From assembly GCA_964519305.1 (NCBI GenBank), contig CAZFHY010000005.1:1-64000 (forward strand): a stretch of 64,000 nt of DNA, written 5' to 3'. Shown here piece after piece: positions 1,310 to 52,424 of this stretch; position 1 is the first letter of the stretch, and each line of letters begins with the position of its first letter. The translations under genes and the position numbers were made by a program. Source of the stretch: Candidatus Undinarchaeota archaeon (GTDB lineage: Archaea > SpSt-1190 > JASMDC01). Under the pieces are notes generated by a model that saw nothing but the letters and a program-made list of their open reading frames with translations, was not told the DNA's origin and searched no databases.

Positions 1310-1429
1310 ACTAAAGAAACGGGTCCGTATGCAATAAATACCTTTCCCCCCCGAGCCACGAACAGGGGCTCATGCTTATAAGCAAGGACTGCCACCGAAG
1401 TGTCCGGCTCCCTGCCCCGGAAGGTGACC

Positions 1430-34136: not shown

Positions 34137-35771
34137 ATGCGGTCGCTGGGTGCCCTCTTGCTCGTATTCATTCTACTCGCTTCGGTACAGGCAGCTGAGC
34201 CGGTGATCAAGTACAGTGGAACATCCTTCGATGACAGCCTTTACACGGGAGAGACGAGCGTGATGGAGGTAAAGATCACCTCCACATACGACACCGGTAA
34301 CGCGCCCAGTGTGAACGTGATCCTGGACGCCGCTGAATCCGGTGGTAAGCTCAAGCTCTACCGGATCACGTCGCGCTCGTTCACCAAGCGCACCATCCCG
34401 TGCTCGGACGCCGCGTACAATCGTCACGAGAACTTGAACGTTGCGGTCACCAAGGGTCTAAACTCCTTCCTGTACGCCATTCAGCCATGCGAGAACGTTC
34501 TGCCCGGCACCTATGCCCTGGAGTTCAAGGTGGACGGTACGGCCGTTGTGGAAGAGATAACGGCCAAGGTGCAGTCCCCCGTACGGATATCTGTATCATC
34601 CGGTACCGTCAGACTGGGCGCTGCCAAGACCCTGACCGTCACCGTCGCCAATCGCGGGATCGAGCTCCTAGAGAACGTTGGGGTCGACTTCTCGAGCCCG
34701 CTGCCCGGAAAGATCACGATCAAGCCTACACGCATACGACTGGACGAGAACCTGCCCCTCAAGGCATCCACCAAGTTCGAGGTAACGGTGAACGCTACAC
34801 TTGACACACCCGCCGTTGAATACCCGCTCAACGTGTACACGTCGTACAGGACCTTCGAGACCGTTACCACGGTACGCGAACCCGTCCCCGATAAGAGCAT
34901 CACGGTGGTCCAGGGGGACAATCCCAAGCTGGAGCTGGCCGTACGGGACCCTGCCGACATCAACGTGGAGGATGCCCGGTTCGCCTCAGTGCTCGGGAAG
35001 GAGTTCAACGTGGCGTTCCCTCTCAAGAACACGGGGAACGGGCATGCAGAGAAGTGCACCGTGGAGCTCACCATGCCCCATGGTGTTTTCCTACCCGCCA
35101 ACGTCACACGGCCGTTCGAGTTCCGGGAGCTCGTCACCGAGGACGTGCTCGTCATCGACATGGGAACCCTGATAGGTGGGGACGAGGGGAACGTCGAGGT
35201 CATCTTCCTTCCCCTTCTGGTCGATACCACTCCTGAGGGCACCACCGAGGTCGACGTCCTGGCCCGGTGCCTGAACATGGCAGGGAAAGATATCACGAGC
35301 CGGAGCATGACCATGAAGGTCGACCTTGAGTTCCCGAAGCCGGTGTTCGAGCTGGGCACGAACGTACCGGACACGGTAATCGAGCCCGAGAGCTTCATAA
35401 CCGCAAAGGTCTCTCTTAAGACACTGGAAGCCCAGAAGTGCTCAGTCCGTGTGAAGTGGCCAATATACCTCCATTACATGGACACGCTGGGCAAGTTCCA
35501 GTGGAGCGCCAATCCCGAGGTGAACGGTACATACGAGAAGACGCTGCGGCTCAAGAGCTCCGCAGAGCATCGCTCGACGTCGGACCATGACATTCTGGTC
35601 ACCGCCACCTGCAAGAACAGTCTGGATGTGACCGCGTCCCAGGAACGACGGATCGCTCTCCAATACGTCTCGCCGGGGGGACAACAGGACATGATCGTCT
35701 ACGGCATCGTTGGACTGGGCGCCGTACTGGTCGTTCTCATCGTGCTCTTCCAGCTAACCAAGAATAGCTAG
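34137..35771 (+). CDS. Surface protein with Ig-like/COG1361 S-layer-type domains
   Basis: Signal peptide (VQA|AE), repeated V.N.G beta-sandwich motifs, NxT/S sequons, C-terminal TM anchor. Confidence 0.75.
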   Translation: MRSLGALLLVFILLASVQAAEPVIKYSGTSFDDSLYTGETSVMEVKITSTYDTGNAPSVNVILDAAESGGKLKLYRITSRSFTKRTIPCSDAAYNRHENLNVAVTKGLNSFLYAIQPCENVLPGTYALEFKVDGTAVVEEITAKVQSPVRISVSSGTVRLGAAKTLTVTVANRGIELLENVGVDFSSPLPGKITIKPTRIRLDENLPLKASTKFEVTVNATLDTPAVEYPLNVYTSYRTFETVTTVREPVPDKSITVVQGDNPKLELAVRDPADINVEDARFASVLGKEFNVAFPLKNTGNGHAEKCTVELTMPHGVFLPANVTRPFEFRELVTEDVLVIDMGTLIGGDEGNVEVIFLPLLVDTTPEGTTEVDVLARCLNMAGKDITSRSMTMKVDLEFPKPVFELGTNVPDTVIEPESFITAKVSLKTLEAQKCSVRVKWPIYLHYMDTLGKFQWSANPEVNGTYEKTLRLKSSAEHRSTSDHDILVTATCKNSLDVTASQERRIALQYVSPGGQQDMIVYGIVGLGAVLVVLIVLFQLTKNS

Positions 35772-36404
35772 ACTGAATGGGTCCCCGAGCAGCAGGTTCG
35801 CGATCACCGACACAAGGAGGAACGGCGCCATCGGTATCCTTAGTTCCTGTCCCTCCAGCCTAAAGAGCATGAGGAGCGCAGTGGCCGCGGCGAAGAGCAC
35901 AGGGACCAGTGCGGTCGTGACATCACCGTGCAGGAGTAGGAAGAGCGCTGCCCCCAGGAGCATGCCCAAGGGAGCGTCCCGTCGGCGGAAGGTGGGCCGC
36001 TGTCCTTCGCGCACGACATGCCAGACGTACCATCCCATACCGACTACCTGAGCGAGGAGGACGGCGAGCACCAGCACCGCTACGGGGAAGGGAAGGATTG
36101 CAGGGAAACGTGTCGCCACACCATCGTGGACGAATCCCTGGGCCCTCAGTGGTGAGAGGAGGCAAAGGGCACAAACTAGCTTCACGTCGGCGCCGCCGAT
36201 GCACCGGGCCCGGTACCACAGGAACACTAGGCCGAGCACCAGGAGGTTCACGGAGAACTGGTCCGGGTCATGCCCGATAATCAGGTAAGCGATCGCGCCT
36301 ATGACCAGGAGCACGTCGGTGATGAGCGGATGCACCTCGCCAGTCCGCAGGTCGTCGAGGGAGGCCGCGGCCAGGCCGGCCACGAGCACGTACAGACGCC
36401 ACAC
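35754..36404 (-). CDS. A24 family prepilin peptidase (short form), last gene of the pilin operon
   Basis: DDLRTGEV and IGGADVKL aspartates, IPMAPFL; GTG start 1 nt after upstream TAG. Confidence 0.85.
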   Translation of the reverse strand: MWRLYVLVAGLAAASLDDLRTGEVHPLITDVLLVIGAIAYLIIGHDPDQFSVNLLVLGLVFLWYRARCIGGADVKLVCALCLLSPLRAQGFVHDGVATRFPAILPFPVAVLVLAVLLAQVVGMGWYVWHVVREGQRPTFRRRDAPLGMLLGAALFLLLHGDVTTALVPVLFAAATALLMLFRLEGQELRIPMAPFLLVSVIANLLLGDPFSLAILG

Positions 36405-36405
36405 G

Positions 36406-38667
36406 CTACTTCCACACCTCGAGGTTGAGCACGCCCACACCCCTGCCACCCCGGGGCGCTACGACACGGTTGACGGACACAATACCGTACTTTGCCTGGG
36501 TGGAAGATATGCAACCGAAGTCCGGGCTCTGGCAGTTGGCCAGTCCCTCGGGCGGTTCATCCTCCCCCTCCTGATCGGGGTTTGGATCGGTCATGAAGGG
36601 TTCGGCCTGATACTGTGGATTGAAGCAGAAGGTCTCACAACTCCCTTTGTCCTCGATATCGCGGATCACGCATACTGGAGGGATCGCCTCCGCGTCCCAC
36701 TCACCGCTGACTTCCTCGCCCTCGCAGAACGCCGAGTCCATCCCTATTGACGAGACAGCACACCGGCCGCCAGGGCCTTCACCGGGATCGTTCCAAACCC
36801 ACGCGGTCGTTAGGTGCTCACATGCTTGCAGATCTCCTGCGGCGAGCACGCACTCGTCGTTCACCCAGGTACCGCCCACGTCGGGATCCAGGCAGTCCAC
36901 GTCATTATCGATTCCAACGGCCACACATCGCGGATCGGGCTGGTCCTCGGTCCATTCCGTGTTGCCCGCGGCCTCGCAGGTCTGCTCGTCGGATATGAGC
37001 CAGATGAAGCAGTCCGGATCGTTCCAGACGCCGTTGATGTCCTCGCACGCTGCCTGGTCAGGCACTGCAGCAGGATCGGTCCGACAGAGCTCGGTAGGGA
37101 GCCATTCGGCATCCACGAGAGCACCCTCGCACGTTGTCTGATCAGGAACTATCGGGAGCAGGCACTCGCCCCGCTCGTCGTCCCAGAAGGTAAGGTACTG
37201 TCCTTGATCATCTCCCCAGAAGGTGGCCTCGCCATCGAAGGTCGAATCCGCCTGGACGACAAAACCGTAAGTGCGTGTGGGGATGTCCCCGGTGAACGTG
37301 TCCGTGTGCTGTAGAGCGAGACGGCAGTCGTTGGTAAGGATGAAATTGGCTACGATAGTGGCGCCGGGGAATGTATCCTCACCTTGTCTGAAGGTCGTGT
37401 ACGTGATAGTGGCAGTAGCACTGTTCGCGTCCTGTGTGGTGATGATTGTTGGTTCCTCGCCGGGCAGGCAGACGTTCCCTACATAGCAGTACACGGTGCC
37501 TGCCTGGCAAGCGACCGGGAGTTCGTGCTTGAACACGGGCCGCCACGTCGGGGTTCCGGGTGTAGCGGGATCGCTATCCACGTCGCCATCCGAAGCGACA
37601 TAATAATCGATAAAGCTGACGATACCACCGTCACACGCCGTTCCGGCATGGACGCGGAGCCTAGATTCCACTGTACCGCAGTCGGCCGTGTAGACCTCTG
37701 ACGTCCCGTCCATGGTCTGCTGGATAGAGCCTGCAGGGTGCTGGCCGCCCCCTACCGGGAAGCCGCGGTTGGAGGTCAGATACGTGGCTGCCGCTGCTCC
37801 GATTGTGTCGGAGGCAATATTGCTCTCATCAGGGATAATATCGAAGACGACGGTCCCGCTGTCGTATGTGTCCGGACAGTTACCTGCTTTACAGGCAACG
37901 ATCCCTATTTGGAGAGAGTCACCGTTAGCATCGACTTTCACCTGGGTGAGACCAAGAGCACCTGGCGTGTAATCATCCGCCGTCGTCACATGGAGGCACA
38001 TCCCCCCCGGATCCTCCCGGTTACATGTACCCGTCGAATGACCAGCTTCATTTATCTGGAATACCGCCGGATTCCTGAGAATTATCCTTGTCAGTTCATC
38101 ATCTTCGTAGTAGAAGCTGCCATCCATCTCACGATATCCTGCGGATAATATCCGACAATCATTCCCATTATCCGTCACCGGATCAGTGACAACGCATCGA
38201 GGGACAGGCGCGTCCTCGAACCATTGGGTATTGACGGGTAGAGTAATGTCCCGGTCCACACCCATGTCCTCGTCCTTGCACACGTACATGTTCACACGCC
38301 AGCCATAGCCCAGAGAACCCTCTGTACTCATCAGGCGCGAGAAGAATGTCGGCCCTACCAAAAAGGGAGCTAGTCCACCTGCCGCCTCGACATCGATAGC
38401 GTTCAACCGGTCGATGCCCATACCCTCGTCATAGTACGAAACACCGTACTGATAGCCGTTCGGTGTGGAGTCGACCATGGCGGTCATGAAGTCATCGGAG
38501 ACCATCTTGAGGTCATAAACCGTCTGCCACTCCACACGGTCCTTCTCCACTTCTGTTCCCATTCTTTCCATGGCCGTGAATAGCAGGCCGAAGATGGCAA
38601 GAGCTATGATTATGTCGATGGAGAATGTCTGGCCACGACGTCGCCCTCCGAGCTTCACGGCCCGCAC
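36406..38667 (-). CDS. Large class III signal peptide pilin-like protein with Cys/Trp repeats
   Basis: RRRG|QTFSIDIIIALAIF; repeated C...G.W...C modules; C-terminal LNLEVWK. Confidence 0.8.
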   Translation of the reverse strand: MRAVKLGGRRRGQTFSIDIIIALAIFGLLFTAMERMGTEVEKDRVEWQTVYDLKMVSDDFMTAMVDSTPNGYQYGVSYYDEGMGIDRLNAIDVEAAGGLAPFLVGPTFFSRLMSTEGSLGYGWRVNMYVCKDEDMGVDRDITLPVNTQWFEDAPVPRCVVTDPVTDNGNDCRILSAGYREMDGSFYYEDDELTRIILRNPAVFQINEAGHSTGTCNREDPGGMCLHVTTADDYTPGALGLTQVKVDANGDSLQIGIVACKAGNCPDTYDSGTVVFDIIPDESNIASDTIGAAAATYLTSNRGFPVGGGQHPAGSIQQTMDGTSEVYTADCGTVESRLRVHAGTACDGGIVSFIDYYVASDGDVDSDPATPGTPTWRPVFKHELPVACQAGTVYCYVGNVCLPGEEPTIITTQDANSATATITYTTFRQGEDTFPGATIVANFILTNDCRLALQHTDTFTGDIPTRTYGFVVQADSTFDGEATFWGDDQGQYLTFWDDERGECLLPIVPDQTTCEGALVDAEWLPTELCRTDPAAVPDQAACEDINGVWNDPDCFIWLISDEQTCEAAGNTEWTEDQPDPRCVAVGIDNDVDCLDPDVGGTWVNDECVLAAGDLQACEHLTTAWVWNDPGEGPGGRCAVSSIGMDSAFCEGEEVSGEWDAEAIPPVCVIRDIEDKGSCETFCFNPQYQAEPFMTDPNPDQEGEDEPPEGLANCQSPDFGCISSTQAKYGIVSVNRVVAPRGGRGVGVLNLEVWK

Positions 38668-39131
38668 CTCCAGTCCTGAGTGTCAATGCACAGATGCATG
38701 GTCTTCCCTATGCAACGCATTCGGAGGCTCCGCTCATATACGATCTTGTTCGACGATGGACGGAAGTGGAGCGGGGCATAGGCCTCGTAAGGTCCGAAGT
38801 ACTGCATCTTCGTGTCGTACACTACATGCACGTAGAAGCGGACCGGCCCGATCTCCGCCTCCCGCAACTCGTAGGTGTACATGGAACCGTCACAAGTGAT
38901 GGTCTTGTTGAGCCGCCCTATTGCGAAGTACGGGTTCATGGCGGCAGCCACGCGCTCCGCCTCATCGACAGCGCGCTGCTCGAGGGTCTCCTCACGACGA
39001 TCGTTCCGATGACCCATGAACTGAGCGGCGAGCGCACTGATGAGCACCATATAGATGGCGAAGATGGTCATGAGCTCCAGCGCCACCTGGCCACGACATG
39101 ACCTGAGATCGCGTCCCCTAATCATCTTCAT
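38655..39131 (-). CDS. Class III signal peptide (type IV pilin-like) protein
   Basis: RG|QVALELMTIFAIYMVLI (Gln +1, Glu +5); start may be 39125. Confidence 0.8.
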   Translation of the reverse strand: MKMIRGRDLRSCRGQVALELMTIFAIYMVLISALAAQFMGHRNDRREETLEQRAVDEAERVAAAMNPYFAIGRLNKTITCDGSMYTYELREAEIGPVRFYVHVVYDTKMQYFGPYEAYAPLHFRPSSNKIVYERSLRMRCIGKTMHLCIDTQDWRCGP

Positions 39132-39660
39132 CCTCCTGGGGTACGCCACCTTCTGCGAATAACCGCACACGCCCGTGACGACATTGCACCTTGAGCTGGA
39201 CTGATCCGCAGATTAGGTTGCCGCAGGTGACCTCCATCTTATATCGCTCCGCGGGCTCATCCTTCCATTCTCCCACGGACGATGCACTGAAATGTCGCCC
39301 ATTGACATAGGCAGAACCGGTCGGCGGTGCCGGATCGAACTGGGAGCGAGGTACCTCCACCTCTATCCCCTGCACCCGCCCGCTGCCGAAATCCTCTTCA
39401 CGGTAGCGGACGGTGATATGGCGCGACCATGTATAGACCTGGAGGTGCTCGGTGTTGTGTGAACCACCGTCACAAGCGTGCTCCAGAGAGAATGCGAGCT
39501 TGTTCGCGATGATCTGCGCCCGCTTTGCTGAGTTCCGGTCCGCAAGGCGCTGGTTCTCCATCTTGGCCGTGAACAGAAGCATGGAGAACATCACGAGCAC
39601 CGCTGACATGAGCGCAAGTGTCTCGAGAGGGACCTGACCCCGCCTCACGCGCGCTGTCAT
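39118..39660 (-). CDS. Class III signal peptide (type IV pilin-like) protein
   Basis: RRG|QVPLETLALMSAVLVMF; GGAGG SD; ATGA overlap with the upstream gene. Confidence 0.82.
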   Translation of the reverse strand: MTARVRRGQVPLETLALMSAVLVMFSMLLFTAKMENQRLADRNSAKRAQIIANKLAFSLEHACDGGSHNTEHLQVYTWSRHITVRYREEDFGSGRVQGIEVEVPRSQFDPAPPTGSAYVNGRHFSASSVGEWKDEPAERYKMEVTCGNLICGSVQLKVQCRHGRVRLFAEGGVPQEDEDD

Positions 39661-42542
39661 GTCGCACCTCCCGCAATCTTGCTCACTACGACCATACCCT
39701 GACCTGACTGCCCTGAGGTAATGGGGAGGCTCTGACACCTCACACCGATGGTACCCATCCCCTTGAACACGAGATCGAAGGGCTCGGTCCGTTCCATAAA
39801 GGTGATGGGGACAACTGACGATGCCAAAGGATCATATGCATCGAACCGCTTGAATCCTTTCTCACGACGTACTTCAACAAGAGAGTCCTGGCCGATGTCA
39901 AGGTCTATCGTCTCGAAGATCTCCTCTCCTATGTAGAACTGGTACTCGGTCCCTGTACCCCATTCAGTCGCAGGGAACAGGACGCTTTTACTTAGACCCG
40001 CACCGATAGGGGCCTTAAACCGTGCGTTCCAACCGTCAGCGTTGCCCCCGGTCTCACATGTGTTCTGATTCAGCCGGCTGAGGATATAGCAGGCCCCCGC
40101 TCCAGCATTGGCATCCGGATCCCAGAAGCCGTCACCCTTGGTGCATAGGCGTTCGCTGTTCAGGGAAGGATATATGCAGCGTGGCGGATCGTCCGCCGGC
40201 CACACTCCGTTGGCGGTGCAGGCCCAGAGGGACCGGTCCCCGGTCAGGACATCTGTAGGCGTCTTGCACGTACCGTCATCCGACACGACCGTGAGCACCT
40301 GCTCGTCCCTGTTGACGAAGGAGGTCCGTCGCAGTTCCCTGGGACTGTTGAGCTGCTCGGCGCCGAGCATGACTTGGCTGAAGACCGTGCTAACAGTCAG
40401 GATCACGTTCTCATCATCACCAAGACGGAACTTGTATGTCCCGGGATGCGGGAAAGGCACCTCGACCACATCGTCCGGTTCGAGGTCCAGAGAGAGTACC
40501 GGGGCCCACATCACGTTCTCATCTTCCTCGATGACGCATAGGTCCTGAGTTACCCGAAGATTATCAATACAGCCCTGCTCGTCATGCCAGTGGTAGTAAC
40601 CATCCTGCGTCCAAGTCCCGCTGGCCGACCCACATGCATCCCGGGTGAACTCACAGCTATCAGTGAAGCTATACCATGTCCCATCGGCATCCTCGCACGT
40701 CGTCGGAGTTAGCACGCATCCTAGCAGTTCCTCCCACTTGCCTCCGATGTCCTTGCACGTCTCCTCGATGAACGTGCACGAGCCGGGACCTACCTCGCAC
40801 TCCTCTTGTGAGCCCACGTCGGAGAGCGTGCAGAAATCGATGGGGAGACCCTGATCGTCCTGCGGATCGTTCCACTCACCGTTGAGTGAGCAGAGGCTCT
40901 CAGCGGTGTCTACTTCGTTGGAGCATCCATACTCCTCGGATACTACGGATGCTGACGTCACGTCGGGATTGCGGAAGACGATGACGCCGCCCACGGGTAG
41001 ATCGAGGACCGATGTTGGATCGAACATCAAAGGATGGACATCGACGTCGCGGGTATCCACATATACCTCGAGCACGTCGTCAGGAACGACATCGGGATCG
41101 CCTGCGATACTGAAGCGGTGGACGCCCGATACTGTGAAGGTCACCACGTCGCTGTCCACTCCACATGTTAGTATTTCCTCGTTCCATGCACCATCAACGT
41201 CCTCACAGTCATCGGAGGACAGGATAGCTGCAAGAACTGGGTTCTTTGGGAGGTAGATGCGGTCGTACTCGGAAACCCACCCTCCGTCGTCGCGCTCGCA
41301 GACCTCACGAGAGACAGCACGCTCGGCGATATGACAACCGGCACCGTTCACTTCTTCTCCACCACTGTCCGTGCACAGGTCGGTCACATCGCATGTGGCC
41401 GTACCGGCGTCCCACGAACCAGCGGTTCCTATGAGCACATCGCAGGCATCCTCGGTGCCTATATCAGCGAAGAACACGCACAGGTCCACGCCATCGGCCC
41501 CTGCGCCAGGTCTGTACCGTCCTGCACGGTCACGGACAAGCGCGGGATCGCCCGCCCCGCAACGGTCCTGGCTCACGGCACGATGGGGCAGGTTGCACAC
41601 GGTTCCATCGTCACCGAGGTCTACGATCTCCCCACCCACGGCCACGCACGGAACGCGGATATTGCACATGGGCTCATCGCCTTCGACCCACTCCCCGCCC
41701 ATGGTCTCGCACGATTCCTGCGTATCGAGACCGTCGAAGAACACGCACAGGTTACCGGCTTCGCCCGCTTGCATGTAAGTCCCCTGGAGCCCGCACATGG
41801 GCTCGCTGTCGCCGTAGTCGCTTGAACACTTGCCACTTTCGGACACGATCCTGATGCCGCAGGAGCCGCTCTCGTCATGCCAGGCACCCCCTGCATCACG
41901 ACAGGCAACCGGCGTCATATCGCAGCCGCCGAGATCGTTGTTCCACACACCATGCCCATTCCCACACCCTGTCCGGGCAAGCTCGCATGTGTTATCAGCC
42001 TCTGTCCATGTGCCGCCCGCGGCACGACACTCGTCCTCAGCGAGGGTGCAGTCCAAAGGATCCCCCTCCCAGGCACCGCCTGCGACAAGGCATGCACGCT
42101 CGGCGAGCTCGCAGACACCGTCTGCACCGTTCCACGTTCCCCCCGCGCCAACCTCGCACGCCGCTTCGGTATCAAGGTCGGCGAACCAGTCGTGGCTCTC
42201 GATGATGACACGGTCGTTCAAAGATAGATCCGTGATCCGTGCTGGCCAGAACCCTTCACGCAGTAGCTGGACATTTCGTACCTTGGCCGTTGCGTGTATG
42301 CGTGTATATGGAGCCGCGGGGACCTTCACTTGGACCATGTCGGGGGTCGCTGGTTCACACACGGTCTCGATCGCCGAAGCGAGCTCGTACCCCATGGCGG
42401 TCATCTTCTTCTCGTCTGCGAGGCGGTCGAAGGAGATGTACTTGAGCTGTGCCTGATAGAGCACGTAGCCGAACACCATGAATATGGCAGTGGCAAGGAC
42501 CATGAACTCCAGTGCGACCTGACCTCGGAAGCGCCTCCTCAC
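39657..42542 (-). CDS. 961-aa class III signal peptide pilin-like protein with many Cys/Trp repeats
   Basis: FRG|QVALEFMVLATAIF; tandem C..AGG.W.....C repeats; GTGA overlap and GAGGTG SD. Confidence 0.85.
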   Translation of the reverse strand: MRRRFRGQVALEFMVLATAIFMVFGYVLYQAQLKYISFDRLADEKKMTAMGYELASAIETVCEPATPDMVQVKVPAAPYTRIHATAKVRNVQLLREGFWPARITDLSLNDRVIIESHDWFADLDTEAACEVGAGGTWNGADGVCELAERACLVAGGAWEGDPLDCTLAEDECRAAGGTWTEADNTCELARTGCGNGHGVWNNDLGGCDMTPVACRDAGGAWHDESGSCGIRIVSESGKCSSDYGDSEPMCGLQGTYMQAGEAGNLCVFFDGLDTQESCETMGGEWVEGDEPMCNIRVPCVAVGGEIVDLGDDGTVCNLPHRAVSQDRCGAGDPALVRDRAGRYRPGAGADGVDLCVFFADIGTEDACDVLIGTAGSWDAGTATCDVTDLCTDSGGEEVNGAGCHIAERAVSREVCERDDGGWVSEYDRIYLPKNPVLAAILSSDDCEDVDGAWNEEILTCGVDSDVVTFTVSGVHRFSIAGDPDVVPDDVLEVYVDTRDVDVHPLMFDPTSVLDLPVGGVIVFRNPDVTSASVVSEEYGCSNEVDTAESLCSLNGEWNDPQDDQGLPIDFCTLSDVGSQEECEVGPGSCTFIEETCKDIGGKWEELLGCVLTPTTCEDADGTWYSFTDSCEFTRDACGSASGTWTQDGYYHWHDEQGCIDNLRVTQDLCVIEEDENVMWAPVLSLDLEPDDVVEVPFPHPGTYKFRLGDDENVILTVSTVFSQVMLGAEQLNSPRELRRTSFVNRDEQVLTVVSDDGTCKTPTDVLTGDRSLWACTANGVWPADDPPRCIYPSLNSERLCTKGDGFWDPDANAGAGACYILSRLNQNTCETGGNADGWNARFKAPIGAGLSKSVLFPATEWGTGTEYQFYIGEEIFETIDLDIGQDSLVEVRREKGFKRFDAYDPLASSVVPITFMERTEPFDLVFKGMGTIGVRCQSLPITSGQSGQGMVVVSKIAGGAT

Positions 42543-44233
42543 GGACAGCACCTCTTTCCGTTGCATGTGCGCATAGCGCGCCTGATGAGCGGGTATGCCC
42601 GCAGTACGCGCAGGAGACACTCGTCGTCGTCGGGACACCTTGTGAGGACCTGATACCCGGAATCGATATACGCATCGTCCGTGGCCCATTTGTGCATGAT
42701 GCTGGTGAAATTGTGGATGCCCCGCTGGTCCGGGAGGTCCTCGGCCAGTACCTGGGCAAGAGTTATTATGCTCCCGTCGGCCAGGTTGACATCGTGGTAG
42801 TCCGTAGGATAGAAATCTGTGGCTTCCATACGGCAGGCGATATTGTAGAAGGCCCATACGTCGAAATCAGCGAGATGATAGTCGCACGCAGTCTCTCCCG
42901 ATGACTGGTACTCATCGCCCACTCCCAGATGGACGGGAAGCTTCGTCACCATGTTACCATCCTCGTCAAGGAGCTCCATCTCACCGTCGTACATGGCCGT
43001 GGGTAGAAGGCTGCTCAGTCCGCTCTCCACGATGGTCTGGGAGGTGCATCGGGAGCGCATGACGACGCCCTCTGCTGCGGCGAACGTGTCGGGGTCGTTA
43101 CCGTCGATATCCGGGGAGTAAACGCATGGATAGCAGGTGTCGACGGGGTATATCTCGTCGTAATCGTTCCTACCGGGCGAACACGCTCCGCAGGGTGTTC
43201 CTTCTGCCTCCTCTGGCTCCTGGACTCCGCTGTAGAGACCGTACCAGCTCTGAGGATAGGTGCGTCCCGTATCCTCGTCCACAGCGAAGAAACCATCGAT
43301 GTACTCGTCATGGTCAGGGTCCGTGTACCGCGAGCATGTGTTGCTTATATGGACCCCGAACGTCCGGCGAAGGATATCCCGCGGGTCCGGTGGTTCTGCT
43401 CCTTCTTCAGCTTCCCCCCCATCGAGCTCACAGAACTCCTCGAAGGAATGGCCTCGAGGTATACCATATGGGCCGAGCGTCGTATGGTCACTGAGCACGC
43501 ACATCCCGAGCTCCACTGCTGCACAGAGCGACCGGGCAGGACCGCAGGCCTTCCCCGCCTCCCGTGCGTACGTGGCGAGGTTCTGCATGTCCACCGCATA
43601 GTCGAGGTTGACGTCCGGCAGCTCCATATCACAGCACCCGAGGTTGTACCCCGTCTGGATAATGAAGGTACCGAACTGCTCGATATCGATCTCTTCAAGT
43701 GTGAGCACGGGCTCGGGATCGGTCTCGGGCGGTGGTGGATCGCCCGGTTCGGTAGGTGCTGCAGCGTCGTCGGATGGTTCGAACCGTAGCCTCAGCCGCG
43801 ACATGGTCCTGAGACGAGCGGCCATCTTACCCTTCCAATCGTCATCACCGGGACCATCGATCAAGGGGGGATATTGGGCACGGACGGCTCCGATGACGGG
43901 CGAGTTTTGACTGGGACAGTTCGTCCCAGTATTCATGAGATCAAATCGATTATTGAGCATGAGTTGCAGGTCCACGATACTGTGGCCGAAGAGCTCGCCA
44001 GGCACTCCGCTCCAAGCACCGACAGCAGCATATCCGCCATCGACGAGCCCTATCTCGAGGGCGGTCTTGTGATACCGGAGGAGATTGATGGCAGCGCGCT
44101 CTTCAAGGTCGATGGTGGCCCGCGCCGAGCGTGCCTGGTTGATCGTAGCTACTTCCAGGACACCGTACGCGATGACGATGAATATAGCCAGAGATATGAA
44201 CCCCTGCTGCTCACGTCGGTCTACTCGCGCCAT
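42539..44233 (-). CDS. Class III signal peptide-like Cys-rich protein
   Basis: RREQQG|FISLAIFIVIAYGVL; acidic, Cys-rich body; overlaps both neighbours. Confidence 0.72.
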   Translation of the reverse strand: MARVDRREQQGFISLAIFIVIAYGVLEVATINQARSARATIDLEERAAINLLRYHKTALEIGLVDGGYAAVGAWSGVPGELFGHSIVDLQLMLNNRFDLMNTGTNCPSQNSPVIGAVRAQYPPLIDGPGDDDWKGKMAARLRTMSRLRLRFEPSDDAAAPTEPGDPPPPETDPEPVLTLEEIDIEQFGTFIIQTGYNLGCCDMELPDVNLDYAVDMQNLATYAREAGKACGPARSLCAAVELGMCVLSDHTTLGPYGIPRGHSFEEFCELDGGEAEEGAEPPDPRDILRRTFGVHISNTCSRYTDPDHDEYIDGFFAVDEDTGRTYPQSWYGLYSGVQEPEEAEGTPCGACSPGRNDYDEIYPVDTCYPCVYSPDIDGNDPDTFAAAEGVVMRSRCTSQTIVESGLSSLLPTAMYDGEMELLDEDGNMVTKLPVHLGVGDEYQSSGETACDYHLADFDVWAFYNIACRMEATDFYPTDYHDVNLADGSIITLAQVLAEDLPDQRGIHNFTSIMHKWATDDAYIDSGYQVLTRCPDDDECLLRVLRAYPLIRRAMRTCNGKRCCP

Positions 44234-45522
44234 ACGCACACCTTCACCGTGACGATCTGCGGACAAGCCAGGGGTTGGACCTGTGGTGAATCGAGGGCTT
44301 CACCGCAACTGTTCCGGTCCAGATTGAGCCCGCACAGCATCACCTCTCGCTCCACACAGTACACGGTCCTTGGGGGTATTTGCTCAGGGATGTGGCAGGA
44401 GCAGAAGAAGCCGAAAGGATTGTCGCAGTCGTTACTGGGATCGTCATCGTACCTACTGTTGTCGAAGCATCGTCGGAACTTGATGAACCGGGAAGGATCG
44501 TCATCGTCAGTGATATCATTAATGCCATTAGGCAGGTTGAGTACGGTATCGATTATGTCCCTAGAGTGGTCCGCTATACTCTCTGCGCCTTCCAACGCTT
44601 CTCTTACAGTGCGCGCAGCATAGGTACGGGGTGTCGGCGGATTCGCCTCGGGAGGATCCTTCTCGGGAGGGAACACCTCGGGGAAGAGCTTTGGCAATAG
44701 CCGATCCAGCTCGCGGTCCTCGGCCATCTGGTCAGGCGTCGCTAGTTCAGGATTGTCCGCGAAAAAGTTGATACCATAGGTGCTCACATACCTGATGGTG
44801 GGATCCTCGGCGTCCTCGTTGATACTCTGTTCGAACCGTCCGAGGCTGGGCGGGTCCATGCGCCATTCGGTGGCGTAGCCCAGGGGGGGATCTGGTGTAC
44901 AGTCATCACTGGTCGTGATGGTCATGAGAACGCATTCTCCTTCACCGGCGTCCCACGCGGCACCGTTGGCGTCGTAGGGTGGGACCTCGCAGGTCCCAAG
45001 ATCGATCACGTCCGCTTCCGTGACCACGCATCGCGGATTCGGGTCCTCAATCTCAACGAGGTCCTGGCGGGCATAGCCGAGGTACTGCTGGAACGCACCT
45101 GCCCGTGCGTCATCGATCTCTCCTGCATCGATGGCCTCGCGATTGGACTCGTACCACGCAGCGTAGCTCATACCGCCAGCACCGTCGTCCACCGCATCCG
45201 GCAGCAACCCCAGTAGCCACGGGTCCTCGTACTGAATATAGAACCGATACGCCGGGTACATACCGGCGATCGTGTCCAGTGCCATGCTCCCGCAGCTGCG
45301 TTCGGGCGGGAACGCGAATGGGCAGCTCTGGACATGCTCGGCCGACTGGCTGCAGGCGTTGATTATGTCATGGGCAAGACGCTGGGCGTTGAGCGCCTCT
45401 GCGTTGGGATAAGGAAAGTGATGGACCGCGACCGACGATAGGATGAGCACCGATAGCGTCATGGTGAGAAGGGCGTCCATCGTGAATATGAATCCCGCAC
45501 GCTCACGTCGCTCCACGTTCAC
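44221..45522 (-). CDS. Class III signal peptide pilin-like protein
   Basis: RAG|FIFTMDALLTMTLSVLIL; Cys/Trp module; C-terminal VKVCVWRE. Confidence 0.8.
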   Translation of the reverse strand: MNVERRERAGFIFTMDALLTMTLSVLILSSVAVHHFPYPNAEALNAQRLAHDIINACSQSAEHVQSCPFAFPPERSCGSMALDTIAGMYPAYRFYIQYEDPWLLGLLPDAVDDGAGGMSYAAWYESNREAIDAGEIDDARAGAFQQYLGYARQDLVEIEDPNPRCVVTEADVIDLGTCEVPPYDANGAAWDAGEGECVLMTITTSDDCTPDPPLGYATEWRMDPPSLGRFEQSINEDAEDPTIRYVSTYGINFFADNPELATPDQMAEDRELDRLLPKLFPEVFPPEKDPPEANPPTPRTYAARTVREALEGAESIADHSRDIIDTVLNLPNGINDITDDDDPSRFIKFRRCFDNSRYDDDPSNDCDNPFGFFCSCHIPEQIPPRTVYCVEREVMLCGLNLDRNSCGEALDSPQVQPLACPQIVTVKVCVWRE

Positions 45523-48500
45523 TCTTCCTCCTCCTCCTCTTCAGGAATGGGTACTATCAGAGCGCTGTCCAGCTCCTCCAGCGTTGGTGGTGGGTCCACA
45601 GGCGTAAGACAGGATGTGAAGCCGATGGAGTTGAAGAAATTATTACATAAGGAGGTCGAGATCGGCTCACGGACGGTGCAGTACGTCTCCATGTTCTCGC
45701 GCATGGAGATAGCCAGGTCCGCCAGCGGTGCGAAGCTGTTCTCGCCGTCCTCGTACGAGCACTCGAGCTCTGCTTGTGTCATGGGCGGGTATAGAGCACG
45801 TAGCAGGTAGTTGTCCTGATCTATACCGCACTGTGCGAGGTTCTCTGTGATCTCGCACTGGTCATCCTCATCAGGCGCCGGGTATGTGATAAGGTCATTA
45901 AAGAACACGTCCAGATCGCGTCCGAGACAGACGTTCTCCTCGCAGTCGCCGTGACCGGGAAGGGTGGCGAAGGTGGCGCACTCCTTTACGTTGTTGCACT
46001 CGCTCCCGGCCCGCTTCCCTAAGGCGCACCAGTGCGTGTTGACACCAGCAGTGGGATCGGGCTCTTCAGGGTTCAGGCAATAATAGGGTGTGGGGAACGA
46101 GCCGTCGTTGATGGCGGTCGCGTACTGGTCAGCGAGCCAGTAGCAGCAGTCATTGGCCGGCAGCTCGGACGTCGGCGCATCAGGATCATCACTACATATC
46201 ATCAGGTCCGATACGGTCCCCGTCAGATCATCGAACACCAGATCCCAGCCATCACCTAGAGCGTAGAGGATGGTCACCTTGCTGAGCGCCGATGTGTCGA
46301 TCGTTAAATCACAATCTCTAGAGGCCTGGTCCAGTTCGACGTTGCAATAATCGATTGCGTTAGGGAACCATCCGTCTGTGAGAGACAATGAGACACCGTC
46401 CTCGGTGCAGATGTCGCGGTCCCCGTTGTCGCAGACCACATCACCGTCATATACGGCAATGAACGAGTGGTAATCCCTGTCGATGGCCGGTTCGGACGTG
46501 ATCGTTGCTGTTAATTGGAATGAATTCGTGTTAGTGACATCGAACTCCTTTACAGCGACACCGGTCCACTGGGCCGACATATGCTCGCACTTCAATCGTA
46601 TCTCTGACCTTATTGCCAGGTTGCCCCAGGAGTTGCAGGGATAGGAAGCATCGGCACCGAAGTAGACATCGAAATCCGTCAGGTCAGGATAGGAGCAACC
46701 CTCAACGCCCACGCTGTCGCAGCATGAGAAGGGCGGGGGCTGTACCATGTGGCCCTCGCAAATGGCGGTCTCGTCACAGTCCTCCGCGGGCAGGAACAGG
46801 GCGTGAGTGCATCCCTGGAAGCAGTTATCTGCAAGGTCGTCAAGGTCCCGGCATTGCGTATCGGGGCAATCGGACCCGGGACAGTCCGGATCGAAGCAGT
46901 CGGTGGCCACGCAGTCGGCGTTCGGGTCGTCCAGGTCATCAGTGAGACTGAACACACGACAGAACTTGCAATGATCCGCCTCCGAGCCGGGACAGCACAT
47001 CCCCAGATCGAGGTCGATGCACATGGATGATCCATCGCACTGATGGGTCCGGTTCCCTTCGTCCCCCCACCGCTCAGCAAGTTCCTGCTGGAACAGACTG
47101 TCGTCTATCGAGTCCGGTGCCCATGGATCGTTCACGGGATCGGGCGCCATGGCGTTCATCTCATCTGAGTAAGGAGCGCGAATGACATATGGCAGGTCAG
47201 TTTCCTGGCACGCGTAGACACGGGGAAGCTCGTCCTCGTCGGTCCCGAGGATCGTCCGCGTCACGATTTCCAGGGTCTCAAGGAACTCAGTAGCACAGCA
47301 CTGGCCGTCCTCACCCGGGAGCCCGTCATCGATCTCCTCGGCGATGAGCGTGGCATTGAGATTCACGTAATACGATTCTTTCTGAGCCCGGTACGTTGGG
47401 TCCAGAGGGTCCCCTCCTGCGTCAGCAAGGACCTGAAGGGTGACGTCCTCGAACTCCTGTGGATGGACGCAGGAATACCACGCTCCGCCCATGCAGTAGT
47501 GGTAGCGATAATCACGGTCATCGTTCCATCCAAAACCCGGTGGGTCCTCGTCTATGCGGCCATCGCCATCGTCATCTACATCGTTGTCGGGGTCCTCATC
47601 GTAGAGCGGGAATATCGCGGTCCCCGCGAGCGTGTCTTGGACGCCATTGGCCCCATCGCTCAGGACCTCTTCTGTCCCATCATAAAGTCCGTTATCCCCG
47701 TCATCGGTGGCGAATATCTCGTCCACGCCAGGATCGAAAACTTCTGCCGTCCCCCCTGGTTCGTCTCCGAAGTAATCGGTATCTGCGGGACCGAACACGT
47801 CCGCTATGTTCTGCGTGAGCGTCGTGTCCGGGAGGCACATGGGCAGCGGATCGCCGAACCACTCCACATCGAAAGCGAGCCCGGCGCAGTCATCCTCGAC
47901 AATAATCCCCGGGACCACGCAGTGCAGGAAGCCTGCATCCCACTGGCCATCGTAGGGTGCGCTCTCACAGGTCTCCCGGTCCTCGACGGCCTCGGTGTCC
48001 GCGAGGATGCAGCGGGGATCGGGGTCCGCGCACGTGAACTGTAGCAGCCGGAGATGGTCGGGATCGGTATAGGCGTCCAGAGAACTGTTCCACGAGCAGC
48101 GGGAGAACCCACCACATCCCACGTCTTGTCGATCGCATGTCGCGGTATGTGCATCGGCATCGTAATTGCATCGCTGGACGCGCCACACGCTGTTCTCCTC
48201 CGCGTCCAGCCGGCACCGGTCGCAGTTCTTGCTGAACGTATCAGCACCCTCAGCGTCAAGCATTACGCGACATTCATCGAGATCGTCGGGATCGTTGTCA
48301 GGATCGTTGCATGCGTAGTGCCACTGAGCATCCTCCAAACACTCGTCCTCGACCTCTAGGTCCTCAGGGAGCGGGAGGGGCTCGTCCGAGCAAACGACGG
48401 AGCCCGAGGCCATTTCGACATCACATCGTGCGTCCCGGGCAACGCCGCTGATAGAGCAGTACTGACAGGTAATACCGCCGTTCTCGCCCTCCAAGTCTTC

Positions 48501-49655
48501 GATGCATGCATTCTCGATGGCCGGGGCACCGGGAGGCGGTCCTAGAGCCGGTGGATCACCGGACTCGACGAGATAGCACTGGGTCTCGGGTGCAACAATT
48601 TCCGGTAGCGGATCGCAGGTGATAGGGTCGCCGTACGCAGCGGGCATCACGCACCTGCGAGTCTCGCCAACAGCGAATCGCGCGTTATCTACATCGTTGA
48701 TGCAGCGTGAGCACTGGATGGATCCGCCGTCCTGCGAACCGCACTGGAAGGTAGTCTGTCCTTCGGCGAGCTCGGGGAGGCAGTCGCCCGATTCCGCTGA
48801 TTCGTCACAAGTAGCCTGACCGTCCTGCCTCGTGCAACCCGAGGTCACGATACTACCATCGCTCTCGCAGAACTCACAGTTGATGTCTTCGGCGTTAGTT
48901 GCGTCACATGCCGCTTCCAGCGGTGCGTTCCCGGAGTAGCATGAGTCGGTGGATTGCTGGCACTTGTGCAGGTTGCCATTGCACCGGGCCTGCACTGCTT
49001 CCACGCCTTCATCGACGCTGCACAGGTCACAGTAGACTATGTTGTTATCAACGTCCACCTGACAGGGATTCGCGTCCGGATTGCAGTCCTTCTGCAGCTC
49101 CCCGACCGCCGTGAATACCTTACCTGTGACATCGGACACCAGACAAGTGTCCGCCATCAGCTTGCCTGTCACGTCGCAGTAAAAGCAAAGCCGCTTGTCC
49201 TCGTCCCCGCCGCTACAGGCCACGGCCGCGTCAACGGGGCCGGTGTAGTACTGCACCTGGTCCTCGATGCACTGGCGGGCCTGAGCATCGCACCTGCGCC
49301 GCTGGACAGCACCTGTATCCAGGCACGCCTCCTCGCAGTAGGCGCTCCCAGTGCCCGAGTCCCGCTTGCACGATTCCGCGAATCCGCAGTCGGTCGTGAC
49401 GGGTGGTGAACAGCCACACGTGCCATCACCCTCGTTTATGACACAATCCCATTCATTGAGGACACCGTCCAGCGTGCATCCCGCACAGGTGATCGGTGGG
49501 CCGACGTCGTAGTCACAGGTTACGGGATTACCGTCGACCAGCTGGATAGTGTTCCCCTGACCGAGAACGCATGCCGCGCTGGCAGGTGTGAGGATAATCA
49601 GAAATAGTAGAAGTAGGGTGATGACTGGCGAATCTCGCACGCCATCACCCTTCAT
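45519..49655 (-). CDS. 1378-aa secreted Cys/Asp-rich protein (putative pilus-associated adhesin)
   Basis: Sec signal ITLLLLFLIILTPASA|A, very high Cys density, DDDGDGRIDED Ca-binding-like motif, poly-E tail, no C-terminal TM; start may be GTG 49640. Confidence 0.82.
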   Translation of the reverse strand: MKGDGVRDSPVITLLLLFLIILTPASAACVLGQGNTIQLVDGNPVTCDYDVGPPITCAGCTLDGVLNEWDCVINEGDGTCGCSPPVTTDCGFAESCKRDSGTGSAYCEEACLDTGAVQRRRCDAQARQCIEDQVQYYTGPVDAAVACSGGDEDKRLCFYCDVTGKLMADTCLVSDVTGKVFTAVGELQKDCNPDANPCQVDVDNNIVYCDLCSVDEGVEAVQARCNGNLHKCQQSTDSCYSGNAPLEAACDATNAEDINCEFCESDGSIVTSGCTRQDGQATCDESAESGDCLPELAEGQTTFQCGSQDGGSIQCSRCINDVDNARFAVGETRRCVMPAAYGDPITCDPLPEIVAPETQCYLVESGDPPALGPPPGAPAIENACIEDLEGENGGITCQYCSISGVARDARCDVEMASGSVVCSDEPLPLPEDLEVEDECLEDAQWHYACNDPDNDPDDLDECRVMLDAEGADTFSKNCDRCRLDAEENSVWRVQRCNYDADAHTATCDRQDVGCGGFSRCSWNSSLDAYTDPDHLRLLQFTCADPDPRCILADTEAVEDRETCESAPYDGQWDAGFLHCVVPGIIVEDDCAGLAFDVEWFGDPLPMCLPDTTLTQNIADVFGPADTDYFGDEPGGTAEVFDPGVDEIFATDDGDNGLYDGTEEVLSDGANGVQDTLAGTAIFPLYDEDPDNDVDDDGDGRIDEDPPGFGWNDDRDYRYHYCMGGAWYSCVHPQEFEDVTLQVLADAGGDPLDPTYRAQKESYYVNLNATLIAEEIDDGLPGEDGQCCATEFLETLEIVTRTILGTDEDELPRVYACQETDLPYVIRAPYSDEMNAMAPDPVNDPWAPDSIDDSLFQQELAERWGDEGNRTHQCDGSSMCIDLDLGMCCPGSEADHCKFCRVFSLTDDLDDPNADCVATDCFDPDCPGSDCPDTQCRDLDDLADNCFQGCTHALFLPAEDCDETAICEGHMVQPPPFSCCDSVGVEGCSYPDLTDFDVYFGADASYPCNSWGNLAIRSEIRLKCEHMSAQWTGVAVKEFDVTNTNSFQLTATITSEPAIDRDYHSFIAVYDGDVVCDNGDRDICTEDGVSLSLTDGWFPNAIDYCNVELDQASRDCDLTIDTSALSKVTILYALGDGWDLVFDDLTGTVSDLMICSDDPDAPTSELPANDCCYWLADQYATAINDGSFPTPYYCLNPEEPDPTAGVNTHWCALGKRAGSECNNVKECATFATLPGHGDCEENVCLGRDLDVFFNDLITYPAPDEDDQCEITENLAQCGIDQDNYLLRALYPPMTQAELECSYEDGENSFAPLADLAISMRENMETYCTVREPISTSLCNNFFNSIGFTSCLTPVDPPPTLEELDSALIVPIPEEEEEEE

Positions 49656-49668
49656 ACGTACAGCCCGA

Positions 49669-50259
49669 TCAACACGACGGCATACGCTGGGCGGCAGCAT
49701 TACCCATGATGATGTTCGGTCTGCCTCCCGTGTAGTCGAAGGAGATGTACAACGTGGTACACTGGGGACCCATAGTGCCGCCGGAGTCATGGGCGTGGCA
49801 CTCTCCATCCTGGAGGTTCGTGTAGTCGTCGGCAATATTATCCGGCTCCGTCTGGGTCTGGATCTGGAATCCTAGGGTCTCGGCACCGTCGGCAGCTATC
49901 TTACCGGCCAGGCCGTTGGGCGGGTCACCGCCACCCTGATCGAACAGGTCGTCGTCGCAGGAAGTGGGCATAGGGATCGTGAAGCAGGTGAAATCCCTAC
50001 CCAGCCCCTTACCGCGTGCCACGCACTGCCGGATGGCCCGGTCAATATCATCCGCGCACCCGAAGGCCGGGTCCACAGCGTACTGCTCGGACTGGGGCAG
50101 TGAACGGAGGCAGAGCCACCGCTTCATCTGGAACGCGACGAAGGCCGCGATCGCTAGACCTGCAGTTGCGATAATGAGGTACTCGAGCGGGATGGCACCA
50201 CGCTCATCGCTGGCCATCCTCCTGAGAAGCAACTTCTTGTTCAATTTGTACTTTCTCAT
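49669..50259 (-). CDS. Class III signal peptide pilin, first gene of the operon (candidate major pilin)
   Basis: DERG|AIPLEYLIIATAGLAIAAFVAF (Glu +5); small Cys-containing globular domain; start may be ATG 50217. Confidence 0.8.
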   Translation of the reverse strand: MRKYKLNKKLLLRRMASDERGAIPLEYLIIATAGLAIAAFVAFQMKRWLCLRSLPQSEQYAVDPAFGCADDIDRAIRQCVARGKGLGRDFTCFTIPMPTSCDDDLFDQGGGDPPNGLAGKIAADGAETLGFQIQTQTEPDNIADDYTNLQDGECHAHDSGGTMGPQCTTLYISFDYTGGRPNIIMGNAAAQRMPSC

Positions 50260-50295
50260 ACGTATTTTAAGACACGTATGCTTTTTATCTGTTAC

Positions 50296-51786: not shown

Positions 51787-51961
51787 GTAAGGCGCTGCGC
51801 CCCGATCAATCGAAGGCGGGAGAGCTTATACTAGTGCAAAGGTCCGTGCCCAGCGCAGGATAGAGCTCTAGTGATGCGCTCAAGGGTTCGTGTCCTGACT
51901 GGGCGAGGGGGAAGAGTCCCCCGACTGCTCGGGGAGTTCGCCGATAGGTCGATCCGAACGC

Positions 51962-52354
51962 TCAGCCCTGGACGATGCTCTGCAGGGCCTCCATCATATC
52001 CAGGGGCGACACATAACCCAGCACGTCCCCGGACGAGGAGTCGCAGACGACGACGGCCGAAGGCCGCACGCGGCGGATGTCCTGGTCCACGTTCTTGATG
52101 TCTGTCTCAGGGTTGACCTTGACGACGTTCTCGTCCATGATGTCCTGTGCGGTGGCGACCGTGGGGTCCTTTGCCTCGACGACCGTCTTTGCGACGATGA
52201 TGTCCATCGTTATGGCACCCACGATTTCCTTACCGGCCCTCACGAGGGCGGTACCGTAGTAGCCCTGGAGCAGCCGCTTGGCCACCTGCTGCACGGTCTC
52301 GTCGGGTCCGACGATGATATATTCGTCATCCACCTTAAGGTCAGATACTAACAT
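51962..52354 (-). CDS. CBS domain pair protein
   Basis: VGPDETV...VGAIT..DI; DIMDENVVKVNPETD...LGYVS..D. Confidence 0.88.
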   Translation of the reverse strand: MLVSDLKVDDEYIIVGPDETVQQVAKRLLQGYYGTALVRAGKEIVGAITMDIIVAKTVVEAKDPTVATAQDIMDENVVKVNPETDIKNVDQDIRRVRPSAVVVCDSSSGDVLGYVSPLDMMEALQSIVQG

Positions 52355-52424
52355 AGCGCATCACTTACCAGCCGGCGATACACGTTGAGTTTTAAAAAAG
52401 TTTAGCATGGGATGCGGCCCGAAC

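Follow-up and report, generated by a model that had tools for sequence, protein, structure and literature searches.

What would an archaeon build from a row of very large, cysteine-rich proteins that begin like type IV pilins and are encoded together with a signal peptidase? The question is raised by the first 64,000 nucleotides (positions 1 to 64,000, forward strand) of contig CAZFHY010000005.1, from the Candidatus Undinarchaeota archaeon assembly GCA_964519305.1. We refer to this whole stretch as the window (C5:1-64000), to its genome as G000 and to the genome of a sister species as G001. Between positions 35754 and 50259, the open reading frame (ORF) listing and the inspection of start codons gave nine co-oriented genes on the minus strand (g1 to g9), whose products comprise seven proteins with class III (prepilin-type) N-termini, a Sec-type Cys/Asp-rich protein of 1378 amino acids and an A24 peptidase. 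We lean toward the view that this operon provides the pilin and minor-pilin/adhesin set of an archaeal type IV filament (T4F) system, that is, a shaft together with a tip or adhesin, a reading that we consider somewhat probable.

Gene content of the operon and its peptidase

Neighboring genes of the operon are separated by 13 nt at the widest or overlap by up to 28 nt, four of the junctions being overlaps of 4 or 13/14 nt; starts were refined by upstream context and by comparison with orthologues. An initial annotation of this DNA had described a coupled, co-oriented operon of pilin type carrying an A24 peptidase. Its coordinates, gene order and near-adjacent or overlapping junctions were borne out, as was the pilin-type content (seven class III N-termini, and PF01478 above cut-off in the last gene), but it had spoken of eight genes where its own list held nine, and nine were found. 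The first gene, g1 (49669-50259), encodes a small pilin with a precursor of 196 residues (about 175 when mature), 8 Cys and the leader MRKYKLNKK...DERG↓AIPLEY (the arrow marks the cleavage site), followed by a hydrophobic stretch of 19 residues. Its start at 50259 is demanded by the homologue P0014, which is without an internal Met. The Sec-type exported non-pilin is g2 (45519-49655), with 1378 residues, a signal ending in ...TPASA↓AC, 100 Cys (7.3%), 12.7% Asp, a net charge of -222 and an acidic poly-Glu tail. Six pilin-like genes follow in the same direction: g3 (44221-45522; 433 residues, RAG↓FIFTMD, 16 Cys, C-terminal ...VCVWRE), g4 (42539-44233; 564 residues, QQG↓FISL, 20 Cys), the modular g5 (39657-42566; 969 residues, RG↓QVALEF, 46 Cys and ten C-x3-GG-x-W-x6-C repeats), the small g6 (39118-39660; 180 residues, RG↓QVPLE, 4 Cys) and g7 (38655-39131; 158 residues, RG↓QVALE, 4 Cys in the mature part), and g8 (36406-38667; 753 residues, RG↓QTFSID, 30 Cys, C-terminal ...LEVWK). 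The last gene, g9 (35754-36404; 216 residues), encodes a class III signal peptidase of the short A24 form (Pfam PF01478).

At the extreme N-terminus of seven of the eight non-peptidase products (g1 and g3 to g8), a short basic leader with Gly at -1 precedes a hydrophobic helix of about 20 residues, whereas g2 has an ordinary Sec signal rather than a class III one. A rule-based class III scan found g1, g5, g6 and g7. The residue at +1 is Gln in g5 to g8, Ala in g1 and Phe in g3 and g4, and an acidic residue follows as Glu +5 in g1 (Glu-Tyr at +5/+6), g5, g6 and g7 or as Asp +6 in g3 and g8. Substrate sites of EppA, namely KGQV, KGQL, KGQI and RAQI, carry Gln at +1 and Glu at +5 (PMC4371748). 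The EppA-type match claimed by the initial annotation holds for the sites of g5 to g7, whose RG↓QV.LE fits the published +1 Gln/+5 Glu pattern, but not for g9, which is short and not of the EppA form.

The first gene stands out by its conservation. Four homologues of g1 were found at 65 to 98% identity (P0014 being the one at 65%), and all 8 Cys together with the first ~60 residues are invariant across the five sequences. In g5, the N-terminal ~70 to 125 residues resemble the orthologue of g6 in the sister species (33% identity, E 1.5e-7), which fits a small pilin module followed by ~840 added residues. This supports the idea that a small scaffold has been expanded with modules; within G000 itself the match of g5 to g6 was weak (E 0.02). 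As to the C-terminal V-W strand also attributed to these proteins, a hydrophobic-x-hydrophobic-Trp ending occurs in two of the seven (...VCVWRE in g3 and ...LEVWK in g8), the other five being without it. The same ending is found in three large class III proteins at a locus on contig C2 (see below), and overall in 21 of 6794 ORF segments of at least 150 residues.

The identity of g9 is better defined. PF01478 scored 31.6 bits (cut-off 26.5), or 33.7 bits in the whole-genome search, and the Asp residues D18 (...LDDLRTGE...) and D73 (...GGADVKL...), in the numbering of the 216-residue protein, are invariant across the four A24 peptidases of G000 and the sister g9. A proline of P-x-x-P-F type and a C-terminal GD are also invariant in this five-sequence alignment, and its profile matched FlaK of M. 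maripaludis (PDB 3S0X, E 1.8e-6) with both Asp motifs aligned. EppA is described as a "much larger" form with nine transmembrane segments (PMC4371748; PMC4858521). With 216 residues, six hydrophobic segments that exceed the threshold and, in the Pfam search, no Arc_PepC domain, g9 is a short form of FlaK/PibD size and not an EppA-type enzyme. Its closest paralogue among the four is a gene of 214 codons on contig C15, adjoining a CetZ gene and a weak T2SSF-like gene, and the two longer A24 genes encode 389 residues at window positions 1400-2569 (plus strand; PF01478 28.9 bits) and 421 residues, with Arc_PepC, on C2. The 389-residue long form may be an EppA-like enzyme acting on the numerous RG↓Q and RA↓Q proteins of this genome.

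In the filament that we propose, g9 would remove the class III leaders, and an ATPase/platform pair from another locus of the genome would polymerize the freed N-terminal helices. The product of g1, which is small, ultra-conserved, first in the operon and probably translated from a leaderless message, would build the shaft, while g6 and g7 together with g3, g4, g5 and g8 would form a low-abundance priming and tip set. The latter four might be described as "modular pilins", each a pilin module carrying large acidic modules that are probably disulfide bonded. The Sec-exported g2 would join them as a non-pilin adhesin, like PilY1 with the bacterial FimU-PilVWX minor pilins, and the assembly could serve adhesion to a surface, a particle or another cell in sea water.

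Cysteine-rich modules, conservation and distribution

The mature products of g1 to g8 contain 8, 100, 16, 20, 46, 4, 4 and 30 Cys, all even numbers. Compared with the sister species, 219 of the 229 Cys of g1 to g8 are identical, nine lie opposite indels and a single one is substituted, in the leader of g7 and therefore outside the mature protein; all 20 Cys of g4 are kept. Because of these even counts and the near-total conservation, extracellular disulfides are the simplest reading of the cysteines, and the proposal of disulfide-bonded modules made in the initial annotation is well supported. A heme or metal reading was discarded, since no CxxCH motif occurs and neither of the counts 46 and 30 is divisible by four. 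No VKOR match was found in G000. Elsewhere in the genome, a protein of 760 residues with two DsbA/thioredoxin domains (L111:16984-19266) is encoded near a pilus locus on contig C18, and a DsbD/CcdA-like membrane protein (L109:8759-10504) near the one on C12; both are possible extracytoplasmic disulfide machinery for a Cys-rich surface proteome.

The large operon proteins are also strongly acidic, with (D+E)/(K+R) ratios of 2.3 to 4.6 against 1.31 in a crude ORF set of the genome. Net charge is -222 in g2 and -101 in g5, and the two small pilins are near neutral. Stabilization by Ca2+, another element of the initial annotation, goes back to this net charge and to the only DxDxDG-like site in the operon proteins, located in g2, and is a weak proposal. 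Archaeal pilins are commonly glycosylated, so that the number of N-X-S/T sequons in g1 to g8 is unusually low (5 in ~4,600 residues, with none in g1, g3, g5, g6 or g8).

Several sequence modules recur within and beyond the operon. The C-x3-GG-x-W-x6-C unit of about 21 residues, which no Pfam model covers, is present in ten copies in g5 and two in g8, and the first ~600 residues of g2 show a recurring C-x10-C-x2-C-x11-C spacing. Residues 109-224 of g3 match residues 508-603 of g2 (32% identity, E 4e-8), indicating a module common to both proteins. Other Cys-repeat proteins (P0007-P0010) also contain the unit of g5 and g8. One of them, P0007, is a bacterial prepilin in which N_methyl exceeds its cut-off, and we count the presence of the unit in a prepilin in support of the pilin interpretation. 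Within G000 it occurs in 16 large ORFs, some of 2,000 to 5,000 residues with 100 to 639 Cys, the longest having 5,262 codons. In the sister genome, a Sec-type protein encoded on G001:C44 has a counterpart of the central domain of g8 (residues 307-487), with 45% identity. That contig was considered as a second full locus and discarded, since the genes on its minus strand are gyrase-like or of other kinds and only one Sec-type ORF carries the central domain of g8.

All nine operon genes are present in unchanged order in the sister species, the giants included, with amino acid identities from 75.5% (g5) to 97.8% (g1). The ratio of nonsynonymous to synonymous substitution rates (dN/dS) ranges from 0.04 in g1, the lowest, to 0.16 in g5, at a dS of ~0.4 to 1.3, and three flanking genes gave 0.06 to 0.14. 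The operon genes are real and kept under purifying selection; diversifying selection was considered and discarded, as no window of 100 codons exceeded a dN/dS of 0.24. At the DNA level, collinearity with the sister is interrupted only by two indels in g2 and by an insertion of 1.49 kb upstream of g1 in the genome of the window. The GC content across the operon stretch (0.56 to 0.61) is the same as in the remainder of the window. In public marine metagenome contigs from two studies (runs X2 and X5, which may include the assembly's own source), positions 35000-52500 were recovered in one piece with zero differences. The organism reaches a depth of 9-42x in oxygen-deficient marine samples.

Outside this pair of genomes, relatives were rare. 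Among 5.8 billion proteins, g8 had three matches (itself and two at 82% and 66% identity). For g5 there were seven at E<=1e-3 among 1.84 billion representatives, with one further full-length relative at 47% identity; a scan of the genome contigs with g5 found no relative, and an alignment of its family compared to metagenome contigs gave one locus, 76% identical and essentially that of the sister species. The three homologues of g2 have 1115 to 1972 residues and keep the signal ...(A/V)SA↓AC. Homologues of the operon are confined to a handful of close marine lineages. Sequence searches of the PDB with g5, g2 or g9 alone gave nothing meaningful, and the ESM Atlas gave no usable match for g2. 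For g8 the ESM Atlas pointed weakly to archaeal DUF7287 clusters (0.83), a lead that found no confirmation in Pfam and that we set aside. Titles and opening lines of abstracts on Undinarchaeota and DPANN contained no description of such a locus.

This distribution bears on the suggestion of the initial annotation that the locus might be the host-attachment apparatus of a DPANN-type symbiont. The proposal concerns the same machine that we envisage, directed at a host or partner cell, and large adhesin-like modules would be compatible with cell-cell contact. The affiliation of the organism also speaks for it, as the sister is labeled Candidatus Undinarchaeales and the remaining 15 species of the phylum that were compared have genomes of 0.6 to 1.2 Mb. 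However, G000 has 3.63 Mb (99.83% complete, 4.29% contaminated) and the sister 3.8 Mb, so that these unreduced genomes are a poor fit with a reduced symbiont. The alanyl-tRNA synthetase from the window is 91% identical to that of the sister and 47 to 68% identical to DPANN-labeled records, and the lineage is a large-genome marine line within a DPANN phylum, labeled Undinarchaeales. Searches of the 15 small-genome relatives did not detect the locus; g8 was present in 2 of 41 relative genomes, and among the 17 species genomes of the phylum the g1 family was seen in two, both from the genus of the window. No sequence feature points to a cellular target, and we consider symbiotic attachment very unlikely.

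Assembly genes and the weighing of alternatives

The genes that would be needed to assemble a filament are found elsewhere. The initial annotation had remarked that the window holds no assembly ATPase or TadC, and this extends to the whole contig, which is without any T2SSE or T2SSF match. It had also left the pilus interpretation hanging on the presence of a T4P ATPase in the genome, and six T2SSE and seven T2SSF matches above the Pfam cut-off were detected in G000. They include three sets of an ATPase with two T2SSF genes, none of them linked to the operon. The set on contig C1 has an ATPase with an N-terminal 4Fe-4S domain and lies near a CetZ gene, the one on C12 has a short ATPase (a frame of 440 residues), and the one on C18 combines a PilB3_C-type ATPase with three small class III genes. 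Also present are a lone Fer4-ATPase on C1 (the two 4Fe-4S ferredoxin ATPases of that contig are at 44.4-46.7 kb, L107:8462-10678, and 136-139 kb, L108:9436-11892), a lone PilB3_C-type ATPase on C16 and a weaker ATPase on C2. The copy on C16 adjoins a gene (L110:1046-4885) for a SNAP/TPR-type repeat protein of ~1,300 residues that has a paralogue within the window (13206-17129, plus strand). In DPANN archaea, pilin genes are usually scattered away from the adjacent ATPase and platform genes (PMC13705601), and for the Epd pilus, where an ATPase and two platform genes define "system 1"/Epd, separate pilin loci are known (PMC13705601).

A partial paralogous locus gives further weight to a pilin set with a tip partner. 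On contig C35 (8.7 kb; L117:916-8401, minus strand), g3-like and g4-like class III genes (295 and 745 residues) are followed by a Sec-type protein of 1465 residues with 91 Cys and a WD40 beta-propeller. Both the N- and the C-terminus of g3 resemble the 295-residue paralogue. PilY1-type tip adhesins are propeller proteins, and this combination supports the pilin and tip-partner interpretation. It also bears on the possibility that the operon groups unrelated surface proteins that share an export route and form no single structure, with g9 as a local copy of a general class III peptidase. The products have almost no sequence in common beyond their N-termini and the genome contains four A24 peptidases, as this possibility would predict. 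However, gene order, overlaps and content are fully kept between species at a dS of ~0.4 to 1.3, C35 repeats the association of g3-like, g4-like and giant Sec proteins, and a module is common to g2 and g3, all of which makes us regard a mere collection of proteins as very improbable.

Several observations weigh against the filament. There is no acidic residue at +5/+6 in g4, and no curated pilin model passes its cut-off. Class_IIIsignal came closest, with 16.1 bits for residues 14-28 of g5 (cut-off 23.7) and E 0.36 for g7, both below threshold; for the other five proteins the pilin models (Class_IIIsignal, N_methyl, Flp_Fap and TadE) had no match at E<=10, and Flp_Fap, TadE and N_methyl found nothing at that level in the 60 N-terminal residues of all seven. 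The likeness of g1 to Flp and of the N-termini of g5 to g7 to the TadE type found no confirmation in Pfam, and no Pfam or NCBIfam family was above cut-off in any of g1 to g8. AlphaFold 2 models were too low in confidence to show a pilin fold for either g1 (five sequences, mean predicted local distance difference test [pLDDT] score of 42.3, with the helix 11-39 alone moderately confident) or g8 (four sequences, mean pLDDT of 31.8). A complex prediction for the globular parts of g6 and g7 (score 0.00, mark 0.34, with the fold of the partner uncertain) favors neither side. The assembling machine is not linked to the locus, and the roles of g1 as shaft and g2 as tip partner, as well as the function in adhesion, are suggested by analogy. 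Finally, a crude scan of the genome found 49 [KR][GA]↓Q candidates, 26 of at least 400 residues and 3 of at least 900, so that the class III signal may be a general route of surface display and no mark of a filament.

This last point leads to a different construction, in which the cleaved class III proteins would form a short pseudopilus or a bindosome-like array that holds the Cys-rich modules and g2 at the surface, without a long filament. Large class III proteins are indeed many in G000, with the 49 candidates of the Q+1 type and ~20 paralogues of ~600 residues. At C2, two ERG↓F-type proteins of ~1,200 residues and an RG↓Q protein of 431 residues are encoded a few kilobases from the 421-residue peptidase. 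Both large class III proteins and giant proteins rich in Cys are a habit of the lineage and not peculiar to this operon. For three model archaea, FlaFind counts of 16 to 47 have been given (PMC4371748), obtained by methods that differ from our crude scan. Substrate-binding proteins with class III signals, which "functionalise" T4F machineries, are reported to be widespread (PMC13705601), four of the seven subunits here seem too bulky for packing along a shaft, and no ATPase is linked. On the other side, g1 is small and extremely conserved and opens the operon, where a shaft subunit is usually encoded, Pfam and NCBIfam detected no substrate-binding or enzyme domain in any product, and the dedicated peptidase and the two small minor-pilin-like genes fit a pilus set. 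Display without a filament differs from the filament that we prefer in whether g1 polymerizes, and we hold it to be unlikely. Another class III type, unlike that of the operon, is represented by pilin-like genes with identical N-termini ...KRG↓VTPVIAIILL... within the window (59630-60376, plus strand) and on C11 (~109.3 kb), which have no Pfam match at E<=0.01.

The content of the operon (major-like and minor-like pilins, a prepilin peptidase and a Sec protein) also superficially recalls gsp operons, and one might think of a type II secretion-like device whose pseudopilus piston would release g2. We find this hardly credible, since neither a secretin nor an outer membrane is known from the lineage, four pilin-like proteins of 433 to 969 residues are unlike pseudopilins and no ATPase or platform gene is linked. 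A bolder extension of the filament that we propose, quite unlikely in our estimate, would be a lineage-specific thin pilus with a covalently stabilized, multi-megadalton assembly at its tip or surface, made of the four giant modular pilins and the 1378-residue partner and seizing cells or particles, with class III-anchored giant Cys-rich proteins as the main surface architecture of these archaea.

Flanking genes, known systems and significance

On its upstream side the operon is bordered by an IS200/IS605-type insertion sequence (IS) element (~50296-51788, minus strand), which is not part of the pilin system. Its tnpB gene (50313-51617) encodes a TnpB of 434 residues (NCBIfam guided_TnpB, 308 bits). 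The sister lacks this element of ~1.49 kb at the collinear site; in G000 it was inserted after TTAC, in keeping with the target preference of this family, 35 nt upstream of the ATG of g1. Between the element and this ATG, a TATA-like ATAAAAAG sits at -29 to -22, which suggests that the message of g1 is leaderless. On the opposite side, a convergent gene (34137-35771, plus strand) encodes a surface protein of 544 residues with a Sec signal and a C-terminal membrane anchor, in which NPCBM_assoc (24.2 bits, cut-off 24.4) and CARDB (19.6 bits) remained just below cut-off. It is kept at the same place in the sister with a dN/dS of 0.14. As S-layer-like proteins with a C-terminal anchor neighbor archaeal T4P loci (PMC4858521), this protein is possibly associated with the pilin system.

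The plan of the operon, with pilins, a peptidase and a motor in trans, is a known archaeal T4F plan, and its nearest counterpart is the Epd locus of M. maripaludis (eppA-epdA/B/C). There, too, several pilin-like genes share an operon with their own class III peptidase, and the sites have Gln at +1 and Glu at +5 (KGQV/KGQI, compared with RGQV here) (PMC4371748). The Epd cluster likewise includes large adhesin-like proteins, and its assembly genes and some pilins are at other loci (PMC13705601; PMC4858521). The differences are also clear. The peptidase g9 is a short form of 216 residues and not the much larger EppA with nine transmembrane segments, position +1 is occupied by Ala or Phe in three of the seven signals, and the operon is without detectable homology to any described pilin family in Pfam or NCBIfam. 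In addition, its four subunits of 433 to 969 residues and the 1378-residue partner are Cys-rich and strongly acidic.

Bacterial minor-pilin systems offer a second comparison. The priming and tip complex of Pseudomonas consists of minor pilins and PilY1 (FimU-PilVWX-PilY1-PilE), and the operon described here recalls it by a set of about five pilin-like proteins together with a single large, Sec-exported non-pilin that is thought to be located at the tip. While the Sec protein of C35 has a propeller, g2 matched no Pfam or NCBIfam family at E<=0.1, hence no PilY1/PilC propeller or DUF2341 signature, and has no PDB relative, so that the analogy is one of gene content. Archaeal analogues of the PilY1 complex with DUF2341 have been proposed (PMC4858521). 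In Streptococcus sanguinis, the modular pilins PilB and PilC carry a vWA and a lectin module, respectively (PMC8179133); bulky modules stand behind a small pilin module and a role at the tip or in adhesion is expected, and g5 fits the same plan. The modules of that survey are bacterial and recognizable by InterPro, whereas those described here are archaeal, consist of unrecognized Cys-rich repeats and acidic domains, and occur in four proteins of one operon.

Conserved cysteines in archaeal pili are not new either. In the Thermoproteales T4P of subclade 4G (Makarova et al. 2016), nearly all components have multiple conserved cysteines for which disulfides are expected (PMC4858521), and, going by that description, further likenesses are the large proteins with signal peptides, interpreted as adhesins or minor pilins, and the S-layer-like neighbors with a C-terminal anchor. 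These loci belong to another lineage, have other pilin types and include the ATPase and platform genes. The statement in the initial annotation that subunits of such loci are mostly small and not Cys-rich was overstated, as large adhesin-like components and conserved Cys had already been described (PMC4858521).

The bacterial Tad/Flp pili, with Flp, TadE, TadF, TadG and TadV, resemble the operon in several respects: the first gene encodes a small pilin with G↓A..(L/I)EY, small pseudopilins have RGQ..(V/L)E, a further pseudopilin is large, and the A24 peptidase is short and lacks the methyltransferase domain. They differ in that neither Flp_Fap nor TadE was matched here at E<=10 and that the operon is without tadZ, tadA, tadB and tadC. 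Tad pili are considered descendants of the Epd pili of archaea (PMC13705601).

What is new in this locus is the association, in one operon, of four large modular pilin-like proteins with a Sec-exported partner of 1378 residues and with unrecognized Cys-rich acidic modules, as well as a short peptidase beside EppA-type cleavage sites and an occurrence restricted to very few lineages. Most of what is known about archaeal type IV filaments comes from a handful of model organisms whose subunits are small. The locus would carry the "modular pilin" strategy of bacteria to an extreme, in an archaeon and with modules foreign to the databases, a gain in breadth rather than in principle. Since a short peptidase of its own is combined with cleavage sites of two classes (Gln at +1, and Ala or Phe at +1), it makes the specificity of the enzyme directly testable. 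In a 3.6-Mb member of a phylum of 0.6- to 1.2-Mb genomes, such surface machinery may bear on DPANN-related interactions before, or without, genome reduction.

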